Shown piece by piece: positions 6,357 to 17,260 of a stretch of DNA of 64,000 nt; position 1 is the first letter of the stretch; each line of letters opens with the position of its first letter. The position numbers were made by a program, and so were the translations under genes. The stretch covers positions 1,248,001 through 1,312,000 of the forward strand of contig CAXXTH010000017.1 of assembly GCA_963668025.2 (NCBI GenBank). Reading direction: 5' to 3'. Source of the stretch: Candidatus Hydrogenedentota bacterium (lineage in GTDB: Bacteria; Hydrogenedentota; Hydrogenedentia; Hydrogenedentales; SLHB01). A model generated the notes under the pieces. That model searched no databases. It was not told the origin of the DNA and worked only from the letters and a program-made list of their open reading frames with translations.

Positions 6357-6725
6357 TCAGGCGTTCTTCAGCTTGCTCACCAGCCGTGTGATCCATAGGT
6401 CGATATACGAATCGCCCAGCTCTTTCAAGACATCCACGCCCGCCGTGCGGCCATATTCGACAGCCGTTTGGCGCGCCATGCTCCGGGCCTGCTCACGCTC
6501 CTGCGCCGTCAGCTTTCCGTCCTCACGCGCTTGTTTCAATTGCTGCACATAGGTGCGGTAGGTGGCGTCCACCGCAGCTTCAACGGCTTCGACCGCTGTA
6601 TAGTAGCGTTGTTTTTTCACGCGGGCGAACCAGTCGCCCGTCTTGAACATAGCCCACAATCCCCCGACCAAACTGCCCACTGCAGCCACCACTTGGTCCG
6701 CTTGAATCACTTCCGCCAGCACCAT
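6357..6725 (-). CDS. Holin-like protein (LL-H type)
   Basis: Single N-terminal TM then TYRTYVQQLKQAREDGKLTAQERE; last gene after the endolysin. Confidence 0.6.
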   Translation of the reverse strand: MVLAEVIQADQVVAAVGSLVGGLWAMFKTGDWFARVKKQRYYTAVEAVEAAVDATYRTYVQQLKQAREDGKLTAQEREQARSMARQTAVEYGRTAGVDVLKELGDSYIDLWITRLVSKLKNA

Positions 6726-6742: not shown

Positions 6743-7237
6743 TTATTGTCCCCGTTCCCGGTTGTCCGCATGCACATGCCCGTCCCGGTAATCATCCTTC
6801 ACCCAATCGAAATGCCGCCTACACGCCGCCCCCAACACCTGCTGGGGAATACGCACCCGGCCGCGCACCCGCACAGCCGCCAAATCCACCGCAATGCCGC
6901 CGAACCGCGCCAAATGCTTCGACTGCCGCGCCACCGCGCCGCCTTCATCCGCCCAGCCCAAACGCCGCGCCAGGCGCTCGAGATCCGCCTGTGTCCGCAT
7001 GGCGTCCGTTACCACGAGCCAGACTTCTTCGCCCGCCGCCGCGCACAGTTCCCTCCGCACCCGTTCGAGAGACTCGATGACGCTCCGGTGGACCATGCAC
7101 AACCCTTCGCCGTTCTCGAATTCCTTCAGCCGGAAATGCGCCAGCGCTTCGCCGTCCACGTCCACCAACAGGCGCAGGTCATTACGCCCTTTATACGAAT
7201 TCCCGCTTGTCGATGATGTATCCATTGGTTCCGTCAT
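6743..7237 (-). CDS. Peptidase M15-family zinc peptidoglycan hydrolase (endolysin); true start may be slightly downstream
   Basis: HFRLKEF, VVTDAMRT, SKHL..GGIAVDL, HVHAD zinc-binding motifs. Confidence 0.8.
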   Translation of the reverse strand: MTEPMDTSSTSGNSYKGRNDLRLLVDVDGEALAHFRLKEFENGEGLCMVHRSVIESLERVRRELCAAAGEEVWLVVTDAMRTQADLERLARRLGWADEGGAVARQSKHLARFGGIAVDLAAVRVRGRVRIPQQVLGAACRRHFDWVKDDYRDGHVHADNRERGQ

Positions 7238-7712
7238 CCGTTTGGTTAATGGCCGACATGCCCAGCCGTAAAAATAGGTGCGCCAATGGAATGCAGTCCG
7301 TGTCAGGCGTTGGCGCGGATGGAGAGGCCGACTCCGTTCCAGTTTTTACACTGACATCCCACGTTCCCAGCCTGGCCTGCACCAGATCGAGCCGCACGCC
7401 AGTCAATGGTTCCGGTACGGCAGGCGTCTGCACGGATACATCCAAGTGGTATGGCAGATGGGAAATGAACGCCCAACCCGGCTGCACCATTACCGACATT
7501 CCCGGCGTAGCGCTAGGTATAACCTGCAAATCCGATTCCGCCGCCCCGCGTATCACGCCGTCGCCGCCGCCCCATGCCAAATTCAACAAATAACATACCC
7601 GTTCAAGCGCCGCCTCGATGCGGTCATCCCACAAGTTCAATTTCGCCGACGACACGGGCCGTTCCTGAAATGCCCACGCCGTCTTGATGTACGCTTGCCC
7701 CTTAATCGCCAT
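7191..7712 (-). CDS. Phage baseplate / minor tail structural protein
   Basis: N-terminal KTAW....SSAKLNLWDDRIE fibre-attachment-like motif; GMSVMVQPGWAFI, RLDLVQARL, KTGTESASPSAP, IPLA motifs. Confidence 0.6.
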   Translation of the reverse strand: MAIKGQAYIKTAWAFQERPVSSAKLNLWDDRIEAALERVCYLLNLAWGGGDGVIRGAAESDLQVIPSATPGMSVMVQPGWAFISHLPYHLDVSVQTPAVPEPLTGVRLDLVQARLGTWDVSVKTGTESASPSAPTPDTDCIPLAHLFLRLGMSAINQTDDGTNGYIIDKREFV

Positions 7713-7741
7713 CTTGCCCTCCATGCCGTCCCGGCAGGCGT

Positions 7742-9475
7742 TCATGCATCTAAATGCAGCCCCGCATCCAGCGTTATCGCTTCTTCATCGAGTGAAAACG
7801 CGCTCAGATAATCGGCTCCCGGTTGATTCGCTTGCAGGAATCCCAGCGGTTCCGCCACCGAACGCAACGGAGAGGCCAGTTCCGCTACCGTCTGCACCGA
7901 ACGCCCAGACAAACGATGGGATACCCGCGCCACCCGGCCCGCCAGCCTCCCTGCGAACCGGCTTCCCCATTCGCCGTCCAAGGGCGCATCCAGCCGCTTC
8001 AATGTGCTTCCACGCACTTCAATGATATCGCCCGCATCAAGGTGGGCATCCCCAGCGTAAAATTCGATGGTTCCCACACACCCCGGATACGCCACATCAT
8101 CCAGCAGCCCCGCCGCCAGCCGGTCCGCATCCTCTTCAAGCCGTAATGCGGACACTTCCAGGCTAGATGCATGCGCACCCAGCAGCGCCACGCTCTCCGC
8201 GCGCACATACGTTTTTCGCAGCGCCCCACCCACGGGATCGCTCGACAACACCAGCTCATTCACGATCCCTTCCGAGGAGGCCCCCAGTTCAACGCCCGTC
8301 CGCGTACGGTTCGCAAATGCCACACGCTTTACCTGCGCCGGACCGAACGACACGGCCCCGTCCACATCCAGGCTCCATACATGGCCGCCCGCCGCGTAGG
8401 CGAGCAGCGCCAGCAATCCGAATAATCCGCCGTCATAATCCAGACGTCCCAGCACGGTTGCCGCACCCGATACCGAATCCGTGTTTGCCGTGCGATACGA
8501 CAGAAAATCCTTCAGCGCCATCTCCGGCTTGAGCAGCGCGCCATTTTCCGGCAATTCCACATCCGCCGCGCCTTGCTCCACCATCGCCGCGTTCACGCAT
8601 TCTCCGCCGCCATACGCCAGGCCCACATACCGGCCCGCCGCATCCATCCGGAAGTCATATGCTCCCCGCGCGTTCCGGTGCGGGTTCAGTTCGACGTAAT
8701 CCACGCCCTTTTCATCGAGCCAGGCTTGCAGCGCCTCTTTCGCCGTTTTAGCATTCAAGGCATATCCGCTTGCCGCATACCGCGCCGCCGTCCATTCCTC
8801 CGTCTCCGGATGGCGCGCCACGGCTTCCGCATCGAGCGCCAGAGATTCACAGTCCAACATGAGCAACCGCAAATCTGGCCACGCCACGCCGTCCACTACA
8901 AGGCCCGCGATGGTGCGCCCATCTTTCGCATAGGCCCCGCTGGCATCCACGCGCACCCCGCCCGCCCATTGGCCTGAAGCAATGCCGCCCACTGCCAATG
9001 CATTTCCGTCTGTCTTGCGCGTCAGAAACTTTTGATACTCCCGCCGCGCCCCATCGGGATACGCCTCATGCGCCACGTTGTAATGGATGGGGCTTATCGC
9101 GCGCTGAATGGCGTCCTTCACGATGGCCCCCACGGTCCGGTTCTGGTAGAGCTGCGAAAGGGCCACATCCGCGAACCGCGCTTCCGTCTCGAACGCCACC
9201 AGTTCATGGAATCGCACATATCGGTCCAGGATTAGCTTCTTCGTGTCGCTCCATCGCGCCGACGCCTGGGTGACGTACCCAACGCAGGCCTTCCGGCCTT
9301 CGAGCCACAACTCGACCCGGTAGCCTGGCCCCAGCGTATCGATGGACACGGGCAGTAATCCCGCGATATGGTCCGCTTGCCCGGCCCATGCCCGTTCCGC
9401 GTCGAGGAGCGGCGCTTCGTGAAACCGCGCCACGCGCCGCCCCCACGTGTCATACACATCAATCCGGTAATCCAC
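7742..9475 (-). CDS. Tail hub / Tal-like baseplate protein
   Basis: YRIDVYDTWGRRVA start, YQNRTVGAIVKD, GHVWSLDVDGAVSF, GIVNELVL, AGDIIEV..RVARVSHRL; follows the Dit-like gene; GTG start 9475 inferred. Confidence 0.6.
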   Translation of the reverse strand: MDYRIDVYDTWGRRVARFHEAPLLDAERAWAGQADHIAGLLPVSIDTLGPGYRVELWLEGRKACVGYVTQASARWSDTKKLILDRYVRFHELVAFETEARFADVALSQLYQNRTVGAIVKDAIQRAISPIHYNVAHEAYPDGARREYQKFLTRKTDGNALAVGGIASGQWAGGVRVDASGAYAKDGRTIAGLVVDGVAWPDLRLLMLDCESLALDAEAVARHPETEEWTAARYAASGYALNAKTAKEALQAWLDEKGVDYVELNPHRNARGAYDFRMDAAGRYVGLAYGGGECVNAAMVEQGAADVELPENGALLKPEMALKDFLSYRTANTDSVSGAATVLGRLDYDGGLFGLLALLAYAAGGHVWSLDVDGAVSFGPAQVKRVAFANRTRTGVELGASSEGIVNELVLSSDPVGGALRKTYVRAESVALLGAHASSLEVSALRLEEDADRLAAGLLDDVAYPGCVGTIEFYAGDAHLDAGDIIEVRGSTLKRLDAPLDGEWGSRFAGRLAGRVARVSHRLSGRSVQTVAELASPLRSVAEPLGFLQANQPGADYLSAFSLDEEAITLDAGLHLDA

Positions 9476-9494
9476 CGCACACCCCGCTGTCCGT

Positions 9495-10172
9495 TCACCA
9501 CCACCGGTCCCGGAACGCCACCGTGACATCCGCCGCATGTGAGCCTCCCGGCCCATCCGCATACGCCAGCGCCGTTCCGCTTGGCGCAATCACGGGAAAC
9601 AGGCCCGAGGTATACGGCGTCACGTCCACGCCTTCCAGCGTGGCCCGTTCCGCCACGCCGTCCAACACGAGCGACTGCCCATCCGCCACCGTGCCCGCAT
9701 ACGCAATCGTCCGCACGCCATCGCTGAACGAAGGATTTTTCACCGTTCCTACCGCCACAAGCGTGATCACGACGGGTGAATTCATATTGCCTTGCGCGTT
9801 CAATGTCCGTATGGCGCTTGCGGTGCGTATTTGCCATGCCGTGGCCCGCTCCACCTCTGACTCCTCGAAAGGCTCCCGCGCCGACAATTGCAGCGTAAAC
9901 GAAGCCGCCAGTGGTTGCGCCGACACTTCCCGTGTGAATCCCGCGCGCCGCACCCACATCCGCCGTCCGTCACGTAGCGACAACGCCGCCGAATAGTCTT
10001 CCGCCGAAGCCACGTTCACGATGGCGTCCAATTGGGCTTCCGCGTCCGCCACATTCACGAGAAGGCCCTGAATCTCGATGGACCGTTCATCCCGGCCGCC
10101 CACCTCTTCGAGCTTCTCCTGCGCATGAGTGTGCAGTGGGTCCAGCGCCAGCGCCCCCAGCGTGATCCCCAT
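9495..10172 (-). CDS. Distal tail (Dit-like) protein
   Basis: FTLQLSAREPFEES, NAQGNMNSPVVITL, DGQSLVLDG, FPVIAPSG, VAFRDRWW match the siphophage Dit pattern. Confidence 0.7.
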   Translation of the reverse strand: MGITLGALALDPLHTHAQEKLEEVGGRDERSIEIQGLLVNVADAEAQLDAIVNVASAEDYSAALSLRDGRRMWVRRAGFTREVSAQPLAASFTLQLSAREPFEESEVERATAWQIRTASAIRTLNAQGNMNSPVVITLVAVGTVKNPSFSDGVRTIAYAGTVADGQSLVLDGVAERATLEGVDVTPYTSGLFPVIAPSGTALAYADGPGGSHAADVTVAFRDRWW

Positions 10173-10175
10173 CGC

Positions 10176-10592
10176 CTACGCCTCCCTCAGCACGGACTGT
10201 GTATCCGTCACGTCCGCCACGGCCCGCGCGGGACGTTCCGCGCCCGCCGGTTCCAGTAAATACCACGCCTGGTCTTCGAGCCACGCCGCCATGGTCATCA
10301 GCGCCTGGAACCGGTTCCCGTCCGACACCACGTTCGATCCCAGCGACACCTGTTTCACGTCAAACGCATCTTTGGCCGCCAGCGCGCCATACAGCCGCGC
10401 CCCCGCCAGCAGCGTCTCACCCGCCACGAGCCCCTTATCCGGCGGGTCTATTTCCGCATCCGGGTCCAGCCTCCTCAACACCTCGCCGTGTGCTTCCTCA
10501 ATCACTTGTTCGATCAGTTCCGATGGAACGCGCGCCGCATCCCCAAGCTGGAACCGCTCCCGCACCAGCGCCTCAGTCGTAAACGCCGCCAT
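10176..10592 (-). CDS. Head-tail adaptor/connector-like protein
   Basis: 138-aa helical protein starting FTTEALVR..IEQVIEEAHGEV, first virion gene after the capsid gene. Confidence 0.55.
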   Translation of the reverse strand: MAAFTTEALVRERFQLGDAARVPSELIEQVIEEAHGEVLRRLDPDAEIDPPDKGLVAGETLLAGARLYGALAAKDAFDVKQVSLGSNVVSDGNRFQALMTMAAWLEDQAWYLLEPAGAERPARAVADVTDTQSVLREA

Positions 10593-10737: not shown

Positions 10738-12083
10738 CATAAGCGCTAACCTTATATTGCCTCCATCAAACCACGCAACTGTTGCATTCGCTTCCTTGGG
10801 GGCTCTGCCAGATCTCTCGCGATTTCCCGCCACTGGCTGATGCATTCGGATAATCCAAGCGTCGGATTGACCGCTTGGCGAAGGAGGTGCAAGGCGAAAG
10901 AGAGTTCGCGCCACAAGGAGGCCTCGCGGTAGATATCGTCACAGTGGATATCCCCAGGGGGAAAAAAAGCGCCCCTCATCAACAATGGCCTGGGCAAGGC
11001 AGGAGACAAGCATTTTGCCGTGGAGCCAAGCCTTGGCCGACTCCTCGTCTTCCTTTGGCAAGTGTCCCAATCCCATAATCGACTTCATCCGTTTGAAGGC
11101 CAACTCCACCTGCCAGCGCGCCCGGTACAACTCGATAACCTGGTGCGGCGATATTGAATCCGGCAAGGATGTGGCCAGTATGACGTAGCGATGCAGCACA
11201 AGCGTTTCGGGATCCAGACTCCGTTGCTTCTTGCTTAGCTCTTTCTTCGCCCGGCGGATGCTTTGCGCGGCGGCTTCCTCGCTCAAACGCAGCGCACAGA
11301 TCCGTAGCGCCAGCTCCTCCTGCCCCTTTGCCTGGCCAATCAGGGCCCAATCACCCACTTCCCCTACCTCTAGAGACGCCACCAATCCAGCCAGTGGACA
11401 GGTGTTCCCTGCGCCATTCCGAAGACTGAAGGCTTTATTCTTAAGACGCGTCAGAAAGTTCCCGTTATGGCCGAGCACATAACGAAAACCTTTGAGATGC
11501 CCATAAGCACGATCTCCGAGCAATAGGTCGCCAGGCGAGACTCGGAATCGCGCGAAACTCTCTCCAACCTTCGGGCCGGTAATATGAAACTCATCGCATT
11601 GAAGACCGTATAAACATAGGCTGTAGTGAACGCGCCAGTCCGTTCCCGTGCTTCCCGGTTCGCAGACAACGCTCGCATCCACGACGCGAACACGGTAATA
11701 CTCCAGCCATGCAGGCCGAACGCACGGTCCCGCGCGACGTTGAAGTATCTCTACGGCCATCCACCGCAGCCATTCCCCCGAAGCACGCAACCGCTTAAGA
11801 AGTGCCACATCCGACACGGACGCCACATTCCCTTCTCGAGCACGAACGACAGCCTCACGCAGAGAACACCCATCCGCCAAATGGATCAACAGCAAGCGCA
11901 GGAGCGATTCCGTCGACGATATAGAACGAGGCTTGCGGTGCCACGCGCCCAATTCACGAGCCTTGTCCTCCCATCCAGCAGGGAGAAAACGCTGTAAACA
12001 CTGCCAATTCTCATTCCACGCTGCTTCCATGCACCCAGTATAGAAGATTCGTCAGGAGACATCAAATAAGGTTAGCGCTTATG
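10738..12083 (-). mobile_element. IS4-family (IS186-like) insertion sequence, 1346 bp
   Basis: Perfect 18-bp TIR CATAAGCGCTAACCTTAT (10738-10755 / 12066-12083); 11-bp TSD GGGGTCCGGGG (10727-10737 / 12084-12094). Confidence 0.95.
10939..12030 (-). CDS. IS4-family DDE transposase (IS186 InsL-like); possible frameshift extension to 10752
   Basis: SDVALLKRLR, VDAS, GDRAY, YRARWQVELAFKRMKS. Confidence 0.93.
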   Translation of the reverse strand: MEAAWNENWQCLQRFLPAGWEDKARELGAWHRKPRSISSTESLLRLLLIHLADGCSLREAVVRAREGNVASVSDVALLKRLRASGEWLRWMAVEILQRRAGPCVRPAWLEYYRVRVVDASVVCEPGSTGTDWRVHYSLCLYGLQCDEFHITGPKVGESFARFRVSPGDLLLGDRAYGHLKGFRYVLGHNGNFLTRLKNKAFSLRNGAGNTCPLAGLVASLEVGEVGDWALIGQAKGQEELALRICALRLSEEAAAQSIRRAKKELSKKQRSLDPETLVLHRYVILATSLPDSISPHQVIELYRARWQVELAFKRMKSIMGLGHLPKEDEESAKAWLHGKMLVSCLAQAIVDEGRFFSPWGYPL

Positions 12084-12136: not shown

Positions 12137-13180
12137 TCAGCTCCAATCGCTCCGCACCACCACGCGGGCCTTTTCGTAGATCACCGCGAAGTCCGTCACC
12201 ACTGTCAGGTAGGTGCGATCCCATTGCTGGTTGATCAGCTTGTCGCTCTCCACCAGCAAATCCTGCTCCGTCAGCTTCTGCACGGCATACCGCGCATCCA
12301 AGATCGTTAGCTTGTTCGCAGGCTGCTCCGCCATGGGCACCAGCTTCGCCCCTAGCGGCGTCGGCAGTTCGCCCGACTGCGCGAAATTAAACAGCGTCGC
12401 GTCCTCGAACGGCTCCAGTTGCAACAACGCTTGCACCAGCGCCGCATCCGCCAGCATATGCGTCGGACGAAAGTAATGATCGAGCGCCAGTTTCATGTAG
12501 CCCTTCAAGATGTCCCCATACGCCCATGTCCCCGCCGTGGCCGTGTTGATCGACACCGGAGCCGTATCGCCGCCCGACGAATCCCCCTCCGCCAGCACCG
12601 TGGCCAGCCGTGCATCGAGATTCCGCCCCAGGCGTTCGCCAATGCGTTGGAGATGCACCCGCAGCACTTCCATCGACATGCGGCGGATCACCTCATACGA
12701 CGCGATCACTCCTCGCCCCTTCTTGTCCAGCCGCACCACGCGGTCTCCATATGTGATTTCCGACTCCGGGATTGAAGCCCCTTCCGCCACGTACATCAAT
12801 TCTTCCTGCGCCGCTGATTCCTGCACATACGGCACATCCACCGCCGCGCTTTCCACCGCCTGATCGTTCATGATCAACTGCGGATACATCGGCTTCGACT
12901 TCATCCCCGCCAGCACCGATTCCCGTACCATGTCCGGGAACAGCCATTTCGCGTTCGGGTCTGATTGGAAAAACCGGTCCACCGTGATTTTGTTCACGTC
13001 CACGCCGAACTCCGCCGCGCAGTAGTCCGCCGCATTCGTCCCCAATGCGCGGAAATACTGCCCATGCGATAGCCCCAGCGTGTTCAATGTTTCATACAGC
13101 TCGCGACCCCGGACCTGCCGCAGCCGTTCCGGCTCCTGACCCAAAAACGCCACCCGTTCCTTCATTCGCTCATGCGCCAT
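12137..13180 (-). CDS. Major capsid protein (HK97-like fold)
   Basis: ~347 aa; LFPDMVRESV, YVAEGASIPESEI, LDKKGRGVIASYEVIRR, LGRNLD, LLVESDKLINQQWD; position after the decoration gene. Confidence 0.88.
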   Translation of the reverse strand: MAHERMKERVAFLGQEPERLRQVRGRELYETLNTLGLSHGQYFRALGTNAADYCAAEFGVDVNKITVDRFFQSDPNAKWLFPDMVRESVLAGMKSKPMYPQLIMNDQAVESAAVDVPYVQESAAQEELMYVAEGASIPESEITYGDRVVRLDKKGRGVIASYEVIRRMSMEVLRVHLQRIGERLGRNLDARLATVLAEGDSSGGDTAPVSINTATAGTWAYGDILKGYMKLALDHYFRPTHMLADAALVQALLQLEPFEDATLFNFAQSGELPTPLGAKLVPMAEQPANKLTILDARYAVQKLTEQDLLVESDKLINQQWDRTYLTVVTDFAVIYEKARVVVRSDWS

Positions 13181-13210
13181 CGTTCTCATTCCCCCATCAT
13201 GCAAATGGCT

Positions 13211-13585
13211 TCACAGCAGCACGTGCGCCGCTCCCAAGCCCGATTTCACCACGATTCCTGAACCACTCCCCGAAGCCGGGGCCTTCACCTTGCCCGCCGT
13301 AGCCGATACCGAAATCCCATGTATGCCATCCACTACCGGCGCATTGCCGTCATAGGCGAACACGCAGATCCCCCGCACCCGCACGGGAATCCCCATGCGG
13401 TTCTCCGCCGCGTCCGCCAGCGCTTCGCCGAACACCGGCGCTTCCGCGCCCGCCGTATTGCTCACCGTATACGGCCCCACCAGCGCCACCGCGTCGCCCT
13501 TGCGAATATTCACGTTCCCGGAGGCCGCTGTCTGGCAGGCAATCACCAGCTCCGTCACCGGACCCCCCACATCTCCATACGCCAT
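13211..13585 (-). CDS. Capsid decoration/cement protein (DUF2190-like)
   Basis: 124 aa, IRKGDAVAL, VFGEALADA, IPVRVRG; immediately upstream of the capsid gene. Confidence 0.7.
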   Translation of the reverse strand: MAYGDVGGPVTELVIACQTAASGNVNIRKGDAVALVGPYTVSNTAGAEAPVFGEALADAAENRMGIPVRVRGICVFAYDGNAPVVDGIHGISVSATAGKVKAPASGSGSGIVVKSGLGAAHVLL

Positions 13586-13597
13586 TCCGCGAACTCC

Positions 13598-14284
13598 TCA
13601 CCCTTCCCGGGCAATCGCCAGCGCCACATCGGCGCGTTCTTCCGCATCGAGCGCCTCTGGCTGTGACACCGGTTCCGGCGGGTATTTCTGGTCGAACCGC
13701 ACTTCGAAAGCCCGCAGTTGCCCATGCACCTCATCCAGGCTCAGCCCATCGAGGGCTTTCCGCCAGACCGACTCATCAAATGTGTCTCCGTCCAATTCGC
13801 GCCCCAGCCCGCAGAATCGTTCGATAGCCCGCCGCCGCGCCTCGATGCCATCCCGCACCAGCCGCGCCGCCTGCCCGGACTCCACGCCCGCGGCATCGAG
13901 CGCCGCGCATACCGAACGCACCACGCCCAGCGGCAATCCCGGCTCCCGTTCCACGCATACCACCTGCCGTTCCGCGCCCAGCAGTAAAAACCGCTGCTGT
14001 CCCGGCCGCCCTTCGAGCCAGTAATACGTCCCCGCGTCCACCCGAACGGCGTCCCGGTCGTCATCCAGCCATGCCAGCGGATGCGGACCCTTCGCCTCTG
14101 CCCAACGCTCCTCCTCGAGCCCGCCGCCTTCGATCCGCCAACCCAGCAGGAAGCCGTCCGACTCGAGCCGCAAATCCAAGTGCGGCCCTTCCGCGTCCCG
14201 GTGCCGGTGCAGCACGAAACGCCCTGTGGGCGGCCCTGCCTTCACGCCTTCCGCGCCCGCTTCCCGCGTGATTTTCCAATACAT
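13598..14284 (-). CDS. LigD 3'-phosphoesterase-like domain fused to a scaffold-like helical C-terminus
   Basis: GRFVLHRHRD..GPHLDLRLE.DG.L.GWRI and KGPHPLAWL resemble LigD_N (FVVQxH...HYDFRLE..G...SW); charged helical tail. Confidence 0.55.
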   Translation of the reverse strand: MYWKITREAGAEGVKAGPPTGRFVLHRHRDAEGPHLDLRLESDGFLLGWRIEGGGLEEERWAEAKGPHPLAWLDDDRDAVRVDAGTYYWLEGRPGQQRFLLLGAERQVVCVEREPGLPLGVVRSVCAALDAAGVESGQAARLVRDGIEARRRAIERFCGLGRELDGDTFDESVWRKALDGLSLDEVHGQLRAFEVRFDQKYPPEPVSQPEALDAEERADVALAIAREG

Positions 14285-14296
14285 CCAACGCCTCCC

Positions 14297-14488
14297 TTAC
14301 CGGAGCAACTGCTCCGCCAGCGCCGCCACCACGCACGCCAGATTCGCCACCAGTAACAGCACCCCGCGCGCCAGCGTCGCCTCGAGCCGCCGCACCCGCT
14401 CCTTCAACTCGAGCAGGTCCGCCTCCACATTCCGGAACTGCACCTCATACGCCCGCTCGTACGGGCATGGTTCACAATTCACGCTCAT
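14297..14488 (-). CDS. Small coiled-coil plus TM protein (XhlA/holin-like)
   Basis: 63 aa; CxxC, LLELKERVRRLE coiled coil, hydrophobic C-terminus; GAGGAG RBS. Confidence 0.5.
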   Translation of the reverse strand: MSVNCEPCPYERAYEVQFRNVEADLLELKERVRRLEATLARGVLLLVANLACVVAALAEQLLR

Positions 14489-14496
14489 GGCCCTCC

Positions 14497-15186
14497 TCAC
14501 TCCGCCGCCCAAGCCCGCCGCGTCCATATTTCGAGCGGGCGATGGTAGGCCGCGCGCGCCGCTTCGAGCGCCCGCTCCGCGTTCAATGCAGGCTCACTCG
14601 CCACGAATCGCGTGCCCTGCGACCCTGACGGCACCACCGAGCCTTCGATCACCTCCAGCACGTTCCGCATGATGTAATGGCACGCCGCATCACCATACGA
14701 ACGCCCTGGCACGTGGTCGCAGGTCCGCAGATCTTTCCCGCACACGCTGCACTCCGGCGTCTGGAACGAGAACCCAATCGACGTCTCGCGGTACACTCCG
14801 CCCTCGATGTTCAAGATGAATCCCTCGTTCTCCCGCGTCCGCAGCACATACACATCCGGCCGCACCGATACATGCTTCTCATCCCGGTGCAGCCGCGACC
14901 GGAAAAACGTCCCCCGTGGCAGCGAACCCCGCACGTCATGCCGCTCCATCAGCGGACGCCCCGGCGTCAGTTCGTTGATCTTCACCAGCTCCTCTTCCGG
15001 GAAACGGCTGAAATGGCGGTCCACCTGGTCATGGCACAAGTCCATGGTGAACGCCACAAATTCCTGGCGTTCCAGGGGGCGCAGCGCGAAGCGGTTCACC
15101 TCCGCCAGCGTCCCGTCGTCCGCCGCATCCGCGCGCATCCCCACCAGCACGCCCTCGTGCCGGAAAACGAACGGTTCCAGTTCCAT
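14497..15186 (-). CDS. Prohead (capsid maturation) protease with Cys/His-rich insert
   Basis: LCHDQVDRHFSRF, LMERHD, IEGGVYRETSIGF, CSVCG..CDHVPG..Y...C, EGSVVPSGSQ. Confidence 0.75.
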   Translation of the reverse strand: MELEPFVFRHEGVLVGMRADAADDGTLAEVNRFALRPLERQEFVAFTMDLCHDQVDRHFSRFPEEELVKINELTPGRPLMERHDVRGSLPRGTFFRSRLHRDEKHVSVRPDVYVLRTRENEGFILNIEGGVYRETSIGFSFQTPECSVCGKDLRTCDHVPGRSYGDAACHYIMRNVLEVIEGSVVPSGSQGTRFVASEPALNAERALEAARAAYHRPLEIWTRRAWAAE

Positions 15187-15200
15187 GCATCCCCCTTTGC

Positions 15201-15233
15201 CTTTTGCGCTTTTTGTGCCTCTTGTGGCTAGAA
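15201..15233. repeat. Single arm of the host 9-nt periodic repeat family inside the phage-like operon
   Basis: TTTTGCGCTTTTTGTGCCTCTTGTGGCTA resembles the arm at 17337-17365. Confidence 0.55.
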
Positions 15234-15245
15234 AAACTCGTCCAC

Positions 15246-15926
15246 CTACAGCAGCGTCCAAACATAGCCGCCGCCCACCGCCACCGCGATGGTGGCCGCC
15301 GCATCTGCTACATCCACCTGCGTGTTGTCCCAGTCATCCGCCGCCACAGTCACCACCGCGCCGTCCACTGTCGCCGTCACGCCCGTCACGCCATACGTGG
15401 CGTCATTGATCACCGAAGCCAGCGCCGCCGCATCCGCCGCATTGTCCCCGCTGATCGAATATTTCCGTTCCGAAGGCGTCGTCGCCGTGGCATGCGCTGT
15501 GAACGTCACTCCATTGATTGTCACGGCATCTCCCGCCGCCACCGATGTGAGCGTCAGATACCGCTTTGTGGTCTCCGTTTTCAGATTCCGGCCCGTCCCA
15601 TTGCCCGACGCGGGCGGCTTCACGATCCCCCGGTTCACCGAAGCCGCGACGCCCCGCAGGCCATCCGTGGCCGGCAGCCCGCTCGAGAAGCGGAACTTCG
15701 CCACGCCTGACACCAGCACCGGTATCACTTGCGCGTTCTTGGTGGCCGCCGCCATGGCCTGCCCGAAGACCACGTCCTCCGCCGAGAACTCGTTCGTCAC
15801 ACGGAAAAGCCCCGTCAGCTTCACCGCGTCCCCTTTTGCGATATTCACGCCCCCCGAATTCGGCGTCACCATTGTCAGCACGTGCCAATGCTCCTGCCCG
15901 CCAACACCCTTGCCATACGCCACCAT
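15246..15926 (-). CDS. Second capsid decoration protein (paralog of 13211-13585) with a ~100-aa inserted domain
   Basis: AYG..GG..NIAKGDAVKL..VFGQAMAAA..IPVLVSG..DGLRG..VKPPASGNGTG aligns with the paralog; Ala/Thr/Val-rich insert before the final strand. Confidence 0.7.
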   Translation of the reverse strand: MVAYGKGVGGQEHWHVLTMVTPNSGGVNIAKGDAVKLTGLFRVTNEFSAEDVVFGQAMAAATKNAQVIPVLVSGVAKFRFSSGLPATDGLRGVAASVNRGIVKPPASGNGTGRNLKTETTKRYLTLTSVAAGDAVTINGVTFTAHATATTPSERKYSISGDNAADAAALASVINDATYGVTGVTATVDGAVVTVAADDWDNTQVDVADAAATIAVAVGGGYVWTLL

Positions 15927-15948
15927 GCCTAAATCCCCTTTCTTGTTT

Positions 15949-17193
15949 TCAGCCGATGCCAAGCGTGCGGGCCGCTTCCCCATGGGCCATAAAGCCCTGA
16001 TCCCGCAGCTTCACCGCATTGTCAATCGCCTTGCCCCGCGCCGACGCCTCCTTCAGCGCGTCCACCGTCCGGTTCTGCCGCATATGCACCCGCGCCCGCG
16101 CGCTGCCCCACATCAGCGCCAGCTCGAAGTTGTAGAGCCGCTCCAGAATCCGCTTCACGCTCCGGTTCACCGCCTCCACCTGCCGGTTGATGATCTCGAA
16201 CTGCGCCGTCCCATAGGTCTCCGTAGTCCCGTAGTTGCGACCCAGCAGGATAGGCATCAGGTGCGTTCCTGTGATCACTTGCTCCTCGATGGCCTTGTGG
16301 TTCTCGTAAAACACCAGGCCCTCCTGGCCCCCGCGCACCAGATTCACCTGCACGTTGTCATAGGTCACCAGATTCTGATCCACCTCGAGGCCCGACAGCT
16401 TTTCCCGCAGCCCCGCGAAGCTCCCTTCGACCCGGTTTCGGTATGCCTCCGCCGATTCCCCCCGCTCGCGTGGCTCCGGCGCATACTGCACGTGCAGCTT
16501 AGGCCACCCCGCGTTATGCGCCGCCTTCGCCATGTCCTCCAGCAGCCGCTGCTGGATCTTCACCACGAACGGAATCGACCGTAGCATCGAACGCCCATAC
16601 GGATTCGTCCCGTCCCGGTCCAGGCCCACATACACGAAGCGCTCCTTCGGCAGCCGGACCTCTTCCCCGTTCACCACCTGGTACGGTTGTAAGCCCCCTG
16701 CTTCGCGCTTGAACCGCACCGTCCACACATCCACCGGAACCACGTCGTGGACGGACTCCCGGCTTTTCGACAGCACGATCTCGAGCGCCGCCGCCCCGTA
16801 CGTGAACAGCGACGCATAGAACACATCCAGCAGCCCGTCCATCCCCCGGTCGCCGCCGTTCACCCGCGTATCCAGCTCCCGCAGCAGACGCTCCGCGCGC
16901 CACTTCGCCACATCCGATGAAGGCTCCACGATCTCGATGTCGTAGCCCGTCTGGCATAGCCGCTTCCACGTCCACACCGCATCCGAGATATCCGGGATCG
17001 CATCCCGCAGAAACCGGTACACCGGCAGCATGAAAAACGGCGTCTCATTCGGCAGCCGCACGAACTCATGCGCGCCCATCCCCAGCGCCCGCACATCCTC
17101 CGCCACCGAAACCGCCCGGAATGTCTCCAGCCGCGTCCCCCGGGGCCGACTCTCTTCCTGCTTGCCCATCCAACGCTTCAGCCACTTCGCCAT
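15949..17193 (-). CDS. Phage portal protein
   Basis: ~414 aa; YRFLRDAIPDISDAV, LFTYGAAALEIV, VPVDVWTVRF, NPYGRSMLR, TETYGTAQ. Confidence 0.85.
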   Translation of the reverse strand: MAKWLKRWMGKQEESRPRGTRLETFRAVSVAEDVRALGMGAHEFVRLPNETPFFMLPVYRFLRDAIPDISDAVWTWKRLCQTGYDIEIVEPSSDVAKWRAERLLRELDTRVNGGDRGMDGLLDVFYASLFTYGAAALEIVLSKSRESVHDVVPVDVWTVRFKREAGGLQPYQVVNGEEVRLPKERFVYVGLDRDGTNPYGRSMLRSIPFVVKIQQRLLEDMAKAAHNAGWPKLHVQYAPEPRERGESAEAYRNRVEGSFAGLREKLSGLEVDQNLVTYDNVQVNLVRGGQEGLVFYENHKAIEEQVITGTHLMPILLGRNYGTTETYGTAQFEIINRQVEAVNRSVKRILERLYNFELALMWGSARARVHMRQNRTVDALKEASARGKAIDNAVKLRDQGFMAHGEAARTLGIG

Positions 17194-17260
17194 CGCACCA
17201 CCCCCCGCTCCATATCCATCATTCACCCTTTATGGCCACTCTGTTGCACAAATCCTATCC

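Follow-up and report, generated by a model that had tools for sequence, protein, structure and literature searches.

A two-domain gene was identified at 13598..14284 of a 64,000-nucleotide stretch (the window) of contig CAXXTH010000017.1 from a Candidatus Hydrogenedentota bacterium (assembly GCA_963668025.2). Its 228-amino acid (aa) product combines an N-terminal domain resembling the 3'-phosphoesterase (PE) domain of LigD with a C-terminal helical domain of the assembly type, and it is encoded, like every other part of the cluster described here, on the reverse strand. On balance, we consider it probable that this is the scaffold-slot protein of a phage-derived, vertically inherited particle operon, and that its PE domain is an encapsidated passenger enzyme. 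The open reading frame (ORF) starts with ATG, is preceded by a Shine-Dalgarno-like GGGAGG about 7 nt 5' of the start, and has a TGA stop that overlaps the region where ribosomes would bind for the following gene.

A preliminary description of this gene, prepared from the sequence and its translated reading frames, had proposed a LigD 3'-phosphoesterase-like domain fused to a scaffold-like tail. The short motifs that it quoted were located at residues 23-28 (FVLHRH), 35-41 (HLDLRLE), 48-49 (GW) and 68-73 (HPLAWL). The expected similarity to the Pfam family LigD_N was recovered over residues 27-74 (E 0.01), but at 16.4 bits it lay under the cut-off of 31.1. A single-sequence phmmer search of the Protein Data Bank (PDB) matched chain 3p43_A with an E value of 1.8e-4. 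Taken alone, such single-sequence matches to LigD PE are suggestive at best. A profile built from 28 homologs (alignment A1, which was also used for structure prediction) matched 3p43_A and 3p4h_A with E values of 1.4e-7 and 1.8e-5, respectively, over profile positions 10-110. The AlphaFold2 model had a mean predicted local distance difference test score (pLDDT) of 89.4 and placed eight strands between residues 2 and 114. When this model was compared with the PDB using Foldseek, the best seven matches were all LigD PE structures with a probability of 1.00, and a VIA-align comparison with 48,161 representative chains returned 3p4h first (Z 12.8, root-mean-square deviation 1.8 Å over 96 residues, model residues 20-119) and 3n9b second (Z 11.1), the following row having a Z of 6.6. 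A fold search of BFVD with the same model gave nothing below an E value of 1e-3, and its best rows were CYTH domains. Profile and model thus lift the likeness well above chance, and family profile, fold and active-site residues agree that the N-terminal half is a LigD-type PE domain, with the eight-stranded antiparallel beta barrel and 3-10 helix of that superfamily, spanning residues 20-119 (13928..14227). As far as can be judged from sequence and model, it is a divergent branch of the LigD PE superfamily, recognised only by profile and fold.

The active site of this enzyme class has been defined in two archaeal proteins, with His9, His15, Asp17, Arg19, His51 and Tyr55 reported for CkoPE and His36, His42, Asp44, Arg46, His78 and Tyr82 for MbaPE (PMC3082917). 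In the same account, two His and one Asp coordinate manganese, Arg and His bind the phosphate, 3'-phosphates are removed by the enzymes, and alanine mutants of the first five residues lose activity (PMC3082917). As the MbaPE Y82A mutant retained part of its diesterase activity (PMC3082917), the Tyr appears to be the least critical of the six. HMMER alignments paired H28, H35, D37, R39 and H68 of the window protein with MbaPE His36, His42, Asp44, Arg46 and His78, and the His/His/Asp metal site named in the preliminary description is accordingly predicted to be intact, with H28, H35 and D37 as ligands. The first four of these residues lie in the active-site strand motif H26-R-H28-R-D30-x4-H35-L-D37-L-R39-L-E41 (14162..14209), which was aligned to both MbaPE and CkoPE. 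The stretch H68-P-L-A-W72 (14069..14083), aligned to HPLAY of MbaPE (His78, Tyr82), supplies the second phosphate-binding His and a Trp in place of the active-site Tyr. Identity to the six experimentally defined residues is therefore five out of six, the sixth being Trp72.

This arrangement is widely conserved. The strand motif and the five catalytic residues were invariant in all 28 sequences of A1, as was Asp30, an extra invariant residue relative to the solved PEs. Among 185 distinct homologs covering the PE domain (identical sequences collapsed, P0158 left out), 175 kept all five catalytic residues, the individual counts being 181 for H28, 180 for H35, 183 for D37, 183 for R39 and 178 for H68; position 72 was Trp in 174 and Tyr in four. 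P0158, of 1588 aa with eight matching stretches, was set aside as spurious, being repetitive and without family likeness by eye. Judged by these residues, the N-terminal domain is apparently an active DNA-end-cleaning enzyme.

The C-terminal domain (residues 135-228, 13601..13882) is proposed to be a scaffold or capsid-targeting module. In the AlphaFold2 model, helices were observed at residues 119-131, 136-168, 171-179, 183-200 and 214-227, the last being a terminal amphipathic helix that follows a Pro-rich linker, KYPPEPVSQPE, at residues 200-210 (conserved as KYPPxPVSxPE). The preliminary description had taken this region for a charged helical tail. Its helical nature was borne out, but instead of a low-complexity charged tail it is a folded, well conserved domain, with D145, G146, A149, R150, A153, G161, F169, W174, L183, E194 and R196 invariant in A1. 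The location of the gene in the scaffold slot, between a probable protease and the decoration and capsid genes, was likewise as described, and the order portal-protease-PE (or C-terminal domain)-decoration-capsid was found in all ten distant loci compared. With a PE fold predicted and the position conserved in homologous clusters, two of the outcomes that would have refuted the preliminary description did not occur. One family member, P0174 (222 aa), carries a GAF-like N-terminus (Pfam E 0.002) followed by the last ~50 residues of the family, comprising the linker and terminal helix; this single case may be either an assembly chimera or a protein in which the same targeting end bears a different passenger.

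Natural deletions of the PE domain provided further information on the two halves of the protein. In loci L022 (genus g32, family f2) and L044 (genus g61, family f11), the PE domain was deleted together with a neighbouring 76-aa ORF, and the helical domain, from about residue 137 onwards, was joined in frame to the protease ORF. In the remaining three g32 genomes, only the C-terminal domain was matched, inside ORFs of 354-476 aa. The full protein was kept in sister genera of both families, which suggests two independent deletion events in g32 and g61. Matches restricted to the C-terminal domain in G008 and G043 were rejected as domain losses, being truncations at contig ends. Since two genera have dispensed with the PE domain and joined the helical domain to the protease, assembly can be assigned to the helical domain, which is always present and presumably essential, whereas the PE domain can be regarded as an accessory passenger. 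Within genera, the median ratio of nonsynonymous to synonymous substitution rates (dN/dS) was 0.21 over the whole gene, with values of 0.18 in residues 20-115 and 0.19 in residues 119-212, based on 42 usable pairs out of 54 (12 were dropped for saturated or undefined dS), of which 40 and 39 served for the N- and C-terminal domains, respectively. Purifying selection acts on both domains, and the accessory PE domain is maintained by it in most lineages but has been lost in a few.

The distribution of the gene and its cluster was examined across the phylum. A total of 381 homologs of the PE protein, full-length and ~50-64% identical, were obtained at E<=1e-3, and 61 cluster representatives were present among 1.84 billion proteins. 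Most of the named homologs are labelled 'Candidatus Hydrogenedentes', although other labels occur too (e.g. 'FCB group bacterium'). The PE gene was found in 118 of the 135 genomes of the phylum (79 of the 86 of high quality), mostly as one copy, and the capsid gene in 115, with 57-76% identity for full-length matches. Fifteen genomes, among them the well-assembled G132 and G072 (10 and 40 contigs, respectively), lacked both genes. The connector, Dit-like and 615-aa genes described below were also present in eight of the ten distant loci. The cluster occupies unrelated chromosomal contexts in different genomes, and sequence identity follows taxonomy. Twenty-eight flanking ORFs from ten loci included no integrase or terminase; matches to phage families numbered 0 and those to cellular Pfam families 15. 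In a tree of 40 PE proteins (one duplicate row left out), each of the six genera with at least two rows fell on one side of a branch (Shimodaira-Hasegawa-like approximate likelihood ratio test support 93-100), and the number of label changes was 11, the minimum, versus a mean of 27.6 after shuffling, with none of 200 shuffles as low. The closest phage relative of the capsid protein was 33% identical, and no tblastn match to the PE protein was obtained in 50,697 phage records. Given this distribution, the synteny, the cellular flanks and a tree that follows taxonomy, the cluster is best seen as a domesticated, vertically inherited element and not a prophage. What the preliminary description called the head module is accordingly not part of a prophage; it belongs to a phylum-wide, host-owned particle operon. 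A weak second match to the PE protein was seen in G114 (contig 538, 615-788; E 7.9e-4, residues 18-72) within an 864-aa frame, which is probably a conventional LigD, so that some members of the phylum would have both kinds of PE.

In bacteriophage lambda, the protease gpC and the scaffold gpNu3 share one C-terminal domain. In a similar manner, the helical domain of the window protein would bind the inner face of the assembling capsid shell, as does lambda Nu3 or the C-terminus of gpC, and would carry its fusion partner, whether PE domain or protease, into the procapsid. Loading of this kind is suggested, by analogy, by the gene position and by the protease fusions in two genera. As a passenger, the PE domain would carry out Mn-dependent healing of 3' ends, converting 3'-phosphate or 3'-ribonucleotide ends to 3'-OH, and it might act on nucleic-acid ends either inside the particle or after delivery. 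Since no other protein occupies the scaffold slot, each procapsid would be expected to hold many copies of it, barring removal by the protease.

A number of observations weigh against the proposal of an encapsidated enzyme on a scaffold module. With regard to the enzyme, the curated cut-offs of both Pfam LigD_N and NCBIfam TIGR02777 were unmet (TIGR02777: E 4e-4, 20.2 bits versus a cut-off of 144), the active-site Tyr has been replaced by Trp, and the solved PEs have a ~10-residue loop that is lacking here. Deletion of the PE domain in g32 (four genomes) and g61 (one genome) shows it to be dispensable, and at least five full-length representatives (P0127, P0130, P0141, P0156 and P0088) have decayed catalytic residues, keeping the C-terminal domain with at least one of the five residues gone. 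A further sequence, P0157, has an N-terminal domain without the active-site motif. With regard to the carrier, the helical domain gave no PHROG match at E<=0.01 and, within the VIA-align search of the full-protein model, only non-specific helical matches (Z<=6.6). The upstream protease-position gene (14497..15261) encodes a 254-aa protein that matches phrog_16951 (unknown function, E 1.6e-32) and had no match in Pfam, NCBIfam or the PDB, even with a profile, so that its identity as a protease is not proven; its AlphaFold2 model, from a ten-sequence alignment, reached a pLDDT of only 37.9. A language-model protein atlas led from this protein to viral clusters with Peptidase_S78/S77, and a prohead protease remains its probable identity. 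Finally, neither Ku nor a ligase was found in the source genome. As Ku and a second PE-like sequence are both missing from the genome, a classical role in non-homologous end joining is unlikely.

Several of these observations speak for a purely structural scaffold, in which the PE barrel served as a globular or oligomerising part, enzymatic activity was irrelevant or lost, and the His and Asp residues kept a structural metal site. Such a role would fit a PE domain that can be deleted, leaving the C-terminal domain to be fused to the protease, and it would fit the degenerate catalytic residues of five full-length representatives, the change of Tyr to Trp, the deletion of a surface loop relative to solved PEs, and the unmet family cut-offs. 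It accounts poorly, however, for the retention of R39 and H68 as well as the metal ligands in 175 of 185 distinct sequences, and for an N-terminal dN/dS of 0.18, as low as that of the C-terminal domain. Moreover, the substituted Tyr is the least critical residue, MbaPE with a Tyr-to-Ala change being reported as partly active (PMC3082917). An exclusively structural role is therefore considered unlikely, although slightly less so than the other alternatives considered below for the protein.

A second alternative concerns the packaging motor. The preliminary description had pointed to the absence of a terminase from the local cluster, and this was confirmed by Pfam and PHROG scans. No large terminase was found in the source genome (93.75% complete) using six Pfam families (PF03237, PF03354, PF17289, PF04466, PF20441 and PF05876), all with positive control genomes, although a highly divergent motor could still be present. 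A single weak Terminase_6N match (E 0.006) was rejected: it fell in a 779-aa HD-helicase that adjoins a Cas6-like ORF and is Cas3-like by sequence reading. This Cas3-like/Cas6-like pair, at L023 (G000 contig 17, 327742-330882), marks a CRISPR-Cas locus ~930 kb from the window. Across the phylum, Terminase_6N was present in 27 of 135 genomes versus 115-118 for the cluster, and its pattern is sporadic and prophage-like. As no terminase was found, it cannot be presumed that the particle holds nucleic acid for the PE domain, a further point against a packaged enzyme. It could instead be argued that the protein is not cargo at all and acts in the cytoplasm, trimming DNA or RNA ends for a terminase-independent filling of the particle, with the helical domain docking to the portal, the protease or nucleic acid. 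The missing large terminase and the rarity of Terminase_6N relative to the cluster would both suit a helper of this kind. However, the position in the scaffold slot and protease fusions of the lambda C/Nu3 type point to an assembly role within the procapsid, and PE enzymes are described as healing ends and, from that account, are not known to cut duplex DNA (PMC3082917). We regard a cytoplasmic helper as doubtful, somewhat more so than a structural scaffold.

The cluster also encodes a second putative nucleic acid enzyme. At 7742..9589 lies the gene for a 615-aa protein in the tail-tip position, with a central domain resembling staphylococcal nuclease (SNase) at approximately residues 215-345 (8555-8947). 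Pfam SNase matched seven of the eight members of this family (best E 2e-6), and the family profile matched the thermonuclease 2pw5 with an E value of 1.1e-5. D223, G224, T226, R241, E248 and R320 were invariant in all eight sequences, and we take the catalytic-type residues among them to be counterparts of SNase Asp21, Arg35, Glu43 and Arg87. Cleavage of the SNase type leaves 3'-phosphates, which raises the prospect of a cut-and-heal pair in which 3'-phosphate ends left by the tail-tip domain would be turned into 3'-OH by the PE domain. That one conserved operon contains both enzyme domains, and that the nuclease residues are invariant in 8/8 sequences, would agree with such a pairing, as would the correspondence between the nuclease product and the substrate reported for PE enzymes (PMC3082917). 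The distributions of the two proteins nevertheless argue otherwise. In genera g53 and g64, where the clusters are reduced to head genes and two small ORFs, the 615-aa protein was not found in genome-wide searches of all eight genomes, the positive controls G034 and G069 both being detected; these genomes nonetheless keep a PE gene, which in g53 is under strong purifying selection (whole-gene dN/dS 0.07-0.12, four usable pairs). Conversely, g32 and g61 have kept the tail-tip protein or the cluster while the PE domain has been deleted. Because each occurs without the other, an obligatory nuclease-PE pair is disfavoured, and of the three alternatives discussed so far the cut-and-heal scheme is the one to which we give the least credence.

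A defective prophage of the ordinary sort, carrying a repair gene captured from its host (a moron), might be suspected from the phage-type head genes beside cellular genes and from an active insertion sequence (IS) inside the cluster in this genome, but it is highly improbable given a single-copy, syntenic cluster that is intact in 115-118 of 135 genomes in varied contexts with identity following taxonomy, the lack of a flanking integrase or terminase among 28 ORFs from ten loci, and the lack of any other LigD_N-like sequence in the genome as a source for capture.

A wider suggestion can be made for the cluster, which may build a capsid that belongs to the host, bears a portal and does not serve DNA transfer at all. 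The particle would be a protein-filled compartment or delivery particle, its main content being the scaffold-borne PE, and would be a hybrid of a tailed-phage head and an encapsulin-like enzyme nanocompartment, with a nuclease-bearing tail stub in most lineages and the head alone in two genera. This suggestion is tentative and its chances are modest, although we rate them above those of each of the alternatives just considered.

The remaining genes of the cluster are described in order from the portal. The portal protein (15949..17226) matched phrog_3753 (E 5.3e-47) and Pfam Portal_Mu (E 1e-9). Between the portal and protease genes, the ORF list and the comparison of loci revealed a 245-aa paralog (15246..15983) of the 124-aa decoration-like protein, with a C-terminal extension, which was seen only in this genome among the loci compared; elsewhere, the 245-aa query matched only the position of the 124-aa gene. 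Other loci have a variable region after the protease, with inserts of 0.8-2 kb containing unrelated ORFs, such as a 518-aa ORF in L016 with no Pfam match. The 76-aa ORF between the protease and PE genes (14297..14527, from the ORF list) begins, as read from its sequence, with a Cys-x-x-Cys-like segment, which is followed by a coiled-coil-like part and a hydrophobic C-terminus. It was found by tblastn in eight of ten distant loci and was absent in both lineages with PE deletions; because the two were deleted together in both fusion lineages, this small protein may work with the PE domain. On the other side of the PE gene, the 124-aa decoration-like or virion structural protein (13211..13585; phrog_4588, E 6.1e-6) was syntenic in all ten loci, and it is followed by the major capsid protein of the HK97-type family (12137..13204; phrog_3922, E 3.4e-49; Pfam Phage_capsid_4, E 3e-12).

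The IS element is inserted between the capsid and connector genes (10738..12083), with a 363-aa DDE transposase ORF at 10939-12030 (DDE_Tnp_1, E 1.7e-16). With 11 full-length copies at ~100% identity in the source genome, it must be active or recently active. It was absent at this position in ten other loci. Its borders were taken from a separate, high-depth, multi-copy contig among the contigs of four sequencing runs, and no contig bridging an empty site was present among these contigs. In this strain, the insertion may keep transcripts from reaching the tail-tip gene and the small genes that follow it. Beyond it lie a conserved 138-aa protein in the head-tail connector position (10176..10592), with no Pfam or PHROG family match, and a distal tail protein (Dit)-like protein (9495..10172) that matched phrog_33 (E 7.2e-10) and Pfam SPP1_Dit (E 0.0015). 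The 615-aa gene is followed by three small ORFs recognised as conserved by synteny, of 184 aa (7191-7745), 164 aa (6743-7237) and 122 aa (6357-6725), the last being the end of the cluster. These small terminal ORFs gave weak matches to phrog_5339 and phrog_13712 (holin). The 122-aa ORF has a hydrophobic helix at its start, and its holin PHROG match was weak (E 5.7e-4). The 164-aa ORF contains an S-x-H-x-x-G-x-A-x-D stretch and a later H-x-H, a pattern typical of LAS/M15 cell-wall peptidases that makes it a candidate peptidase; a phmmer search of the PDB returned chance-level rows only and gave no database support for a peptidase. The two ORFs may form a lysis pair. By tblastn across ten loci, the 164-aa ORF was found in five and the 122-aa ORF in seven, and both were found in the head-only loci L017 and L018. 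Pfam and PHROG scans revealed no tail tube or tape-measure gene in the cluster. The flanks of the cluster are cellular, with URO-D and dehydroquinase families and, from translations read by eye, ruvA-like and ABC ATPase-like ORFs.

If the favoured interpretation is correct, the window protein would show, in an unusually clean natural case, how fusion to a scaffold module can carry an enzyme into a virus-type capsid, a reading supported by natural 'deletion mutants' in the form of two genera with the assembly domain joined to the protease. A phylum-wide, apparently terminase-less particle of uncultured bacteria would also gain its first biochemical handle, a small domain of ~120 residues that could be expressed and assayed on published substrates, and the substrate of the PE domain, DNA or RNA ends, would indicate what, if anything, the particle carries. 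The separable distributions of the PE domain and the tail-tip nuclease further constrain models of particle function.

No publication describing the cluster or a PE-scaffold fusion was found in literature searches, as judged by titles and abstracts. Comparison was made with the nearest known systems. The closest relatives of the enzyme are the stand-alone, minimised archaeal PEs CkoPE (117 aa) and MbaPE (151 aa), to which the PDB codes 3P4H and 3P43 were assigned by chain length (PMC3082917). The PE of the window shares with them the eight-stranded barrel, the His-His-Asp metal site, and the phosphate-binding Arg and His. Like theirs, its gene is not linked to Ku or ligase; the archaeal PE genes are described as not clustered with other DNA repair genes (PMC3082917). 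It differs from them in its near-invariant Trp for Tyr, the missing ~10-residue loop, the invariant Asp30 and scores below cut-off. It also carries an attached helical domain of 95 residues, and its gene belongs to a capsid operon.

With regard to assembly, the gene order portal-protease-scaffold-decoration-capsid is that of the lambda gpC/gpNu3 system, and the helical domain in g32 and g61 forms the C-terminus of the protease ORF, much as the domain shared with gpNu3 does in gpC. Unlike gpNu3, the stand-alone scaffold-slot protein bears an N-terminal enzyme domain, and the likeness noted is one of arrangement. Delivery of proteins into heads has precedents. T4 Alt and the internal proteins of that phage carry capsid-targeting sequences. 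Enzymes fused to virion assembly proteins have been predicted to be packaged, among them the 'polyvalent proteins' fused to MuF or portal proteins (Iyer et al. 2017, PMC5512222), although neither 'LigD' nor 'scaffold' occurs in the main text of that paper. As in the polyvalent proteins, covalent attachment to a module of head assembly would be the enzyme's route into the capsid (PMC5512222). The present case differs in its carrier, which is a scaffold-slot domain instead of MuF or portal, and in having a LigD-type PE as the enzyme; in addition, the particle belongs to the host, and searches for a terminase found none.

At the level of the whole particle, gene transfer agents of the Rhodobacter capsulatus type (RcGTA) are similar in that a phage-derived structural cluster, present in single copy, is passed on vertically and kept by purifying selection throughout a large clade. 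Unlike RcGTA, the present cluster lacks a tail tube or tape-measure gene, is accompanied by no large terminase that could be found, and in two genera keeps only the head genes and two small ORFs. Encapsulins provide the other parallel, combining an HK97-family shell with an enzyme whose C-terminal extension, in the present case too, likely directs it inside. In contrast to encapsulins, portal, protease and tail-tip genes are present, and the targeting part is a folded domain of 95 residues and not a short peptide. Packaged enzymes on assembly modules are already known, and the particle system described here may itself be of a new kind.

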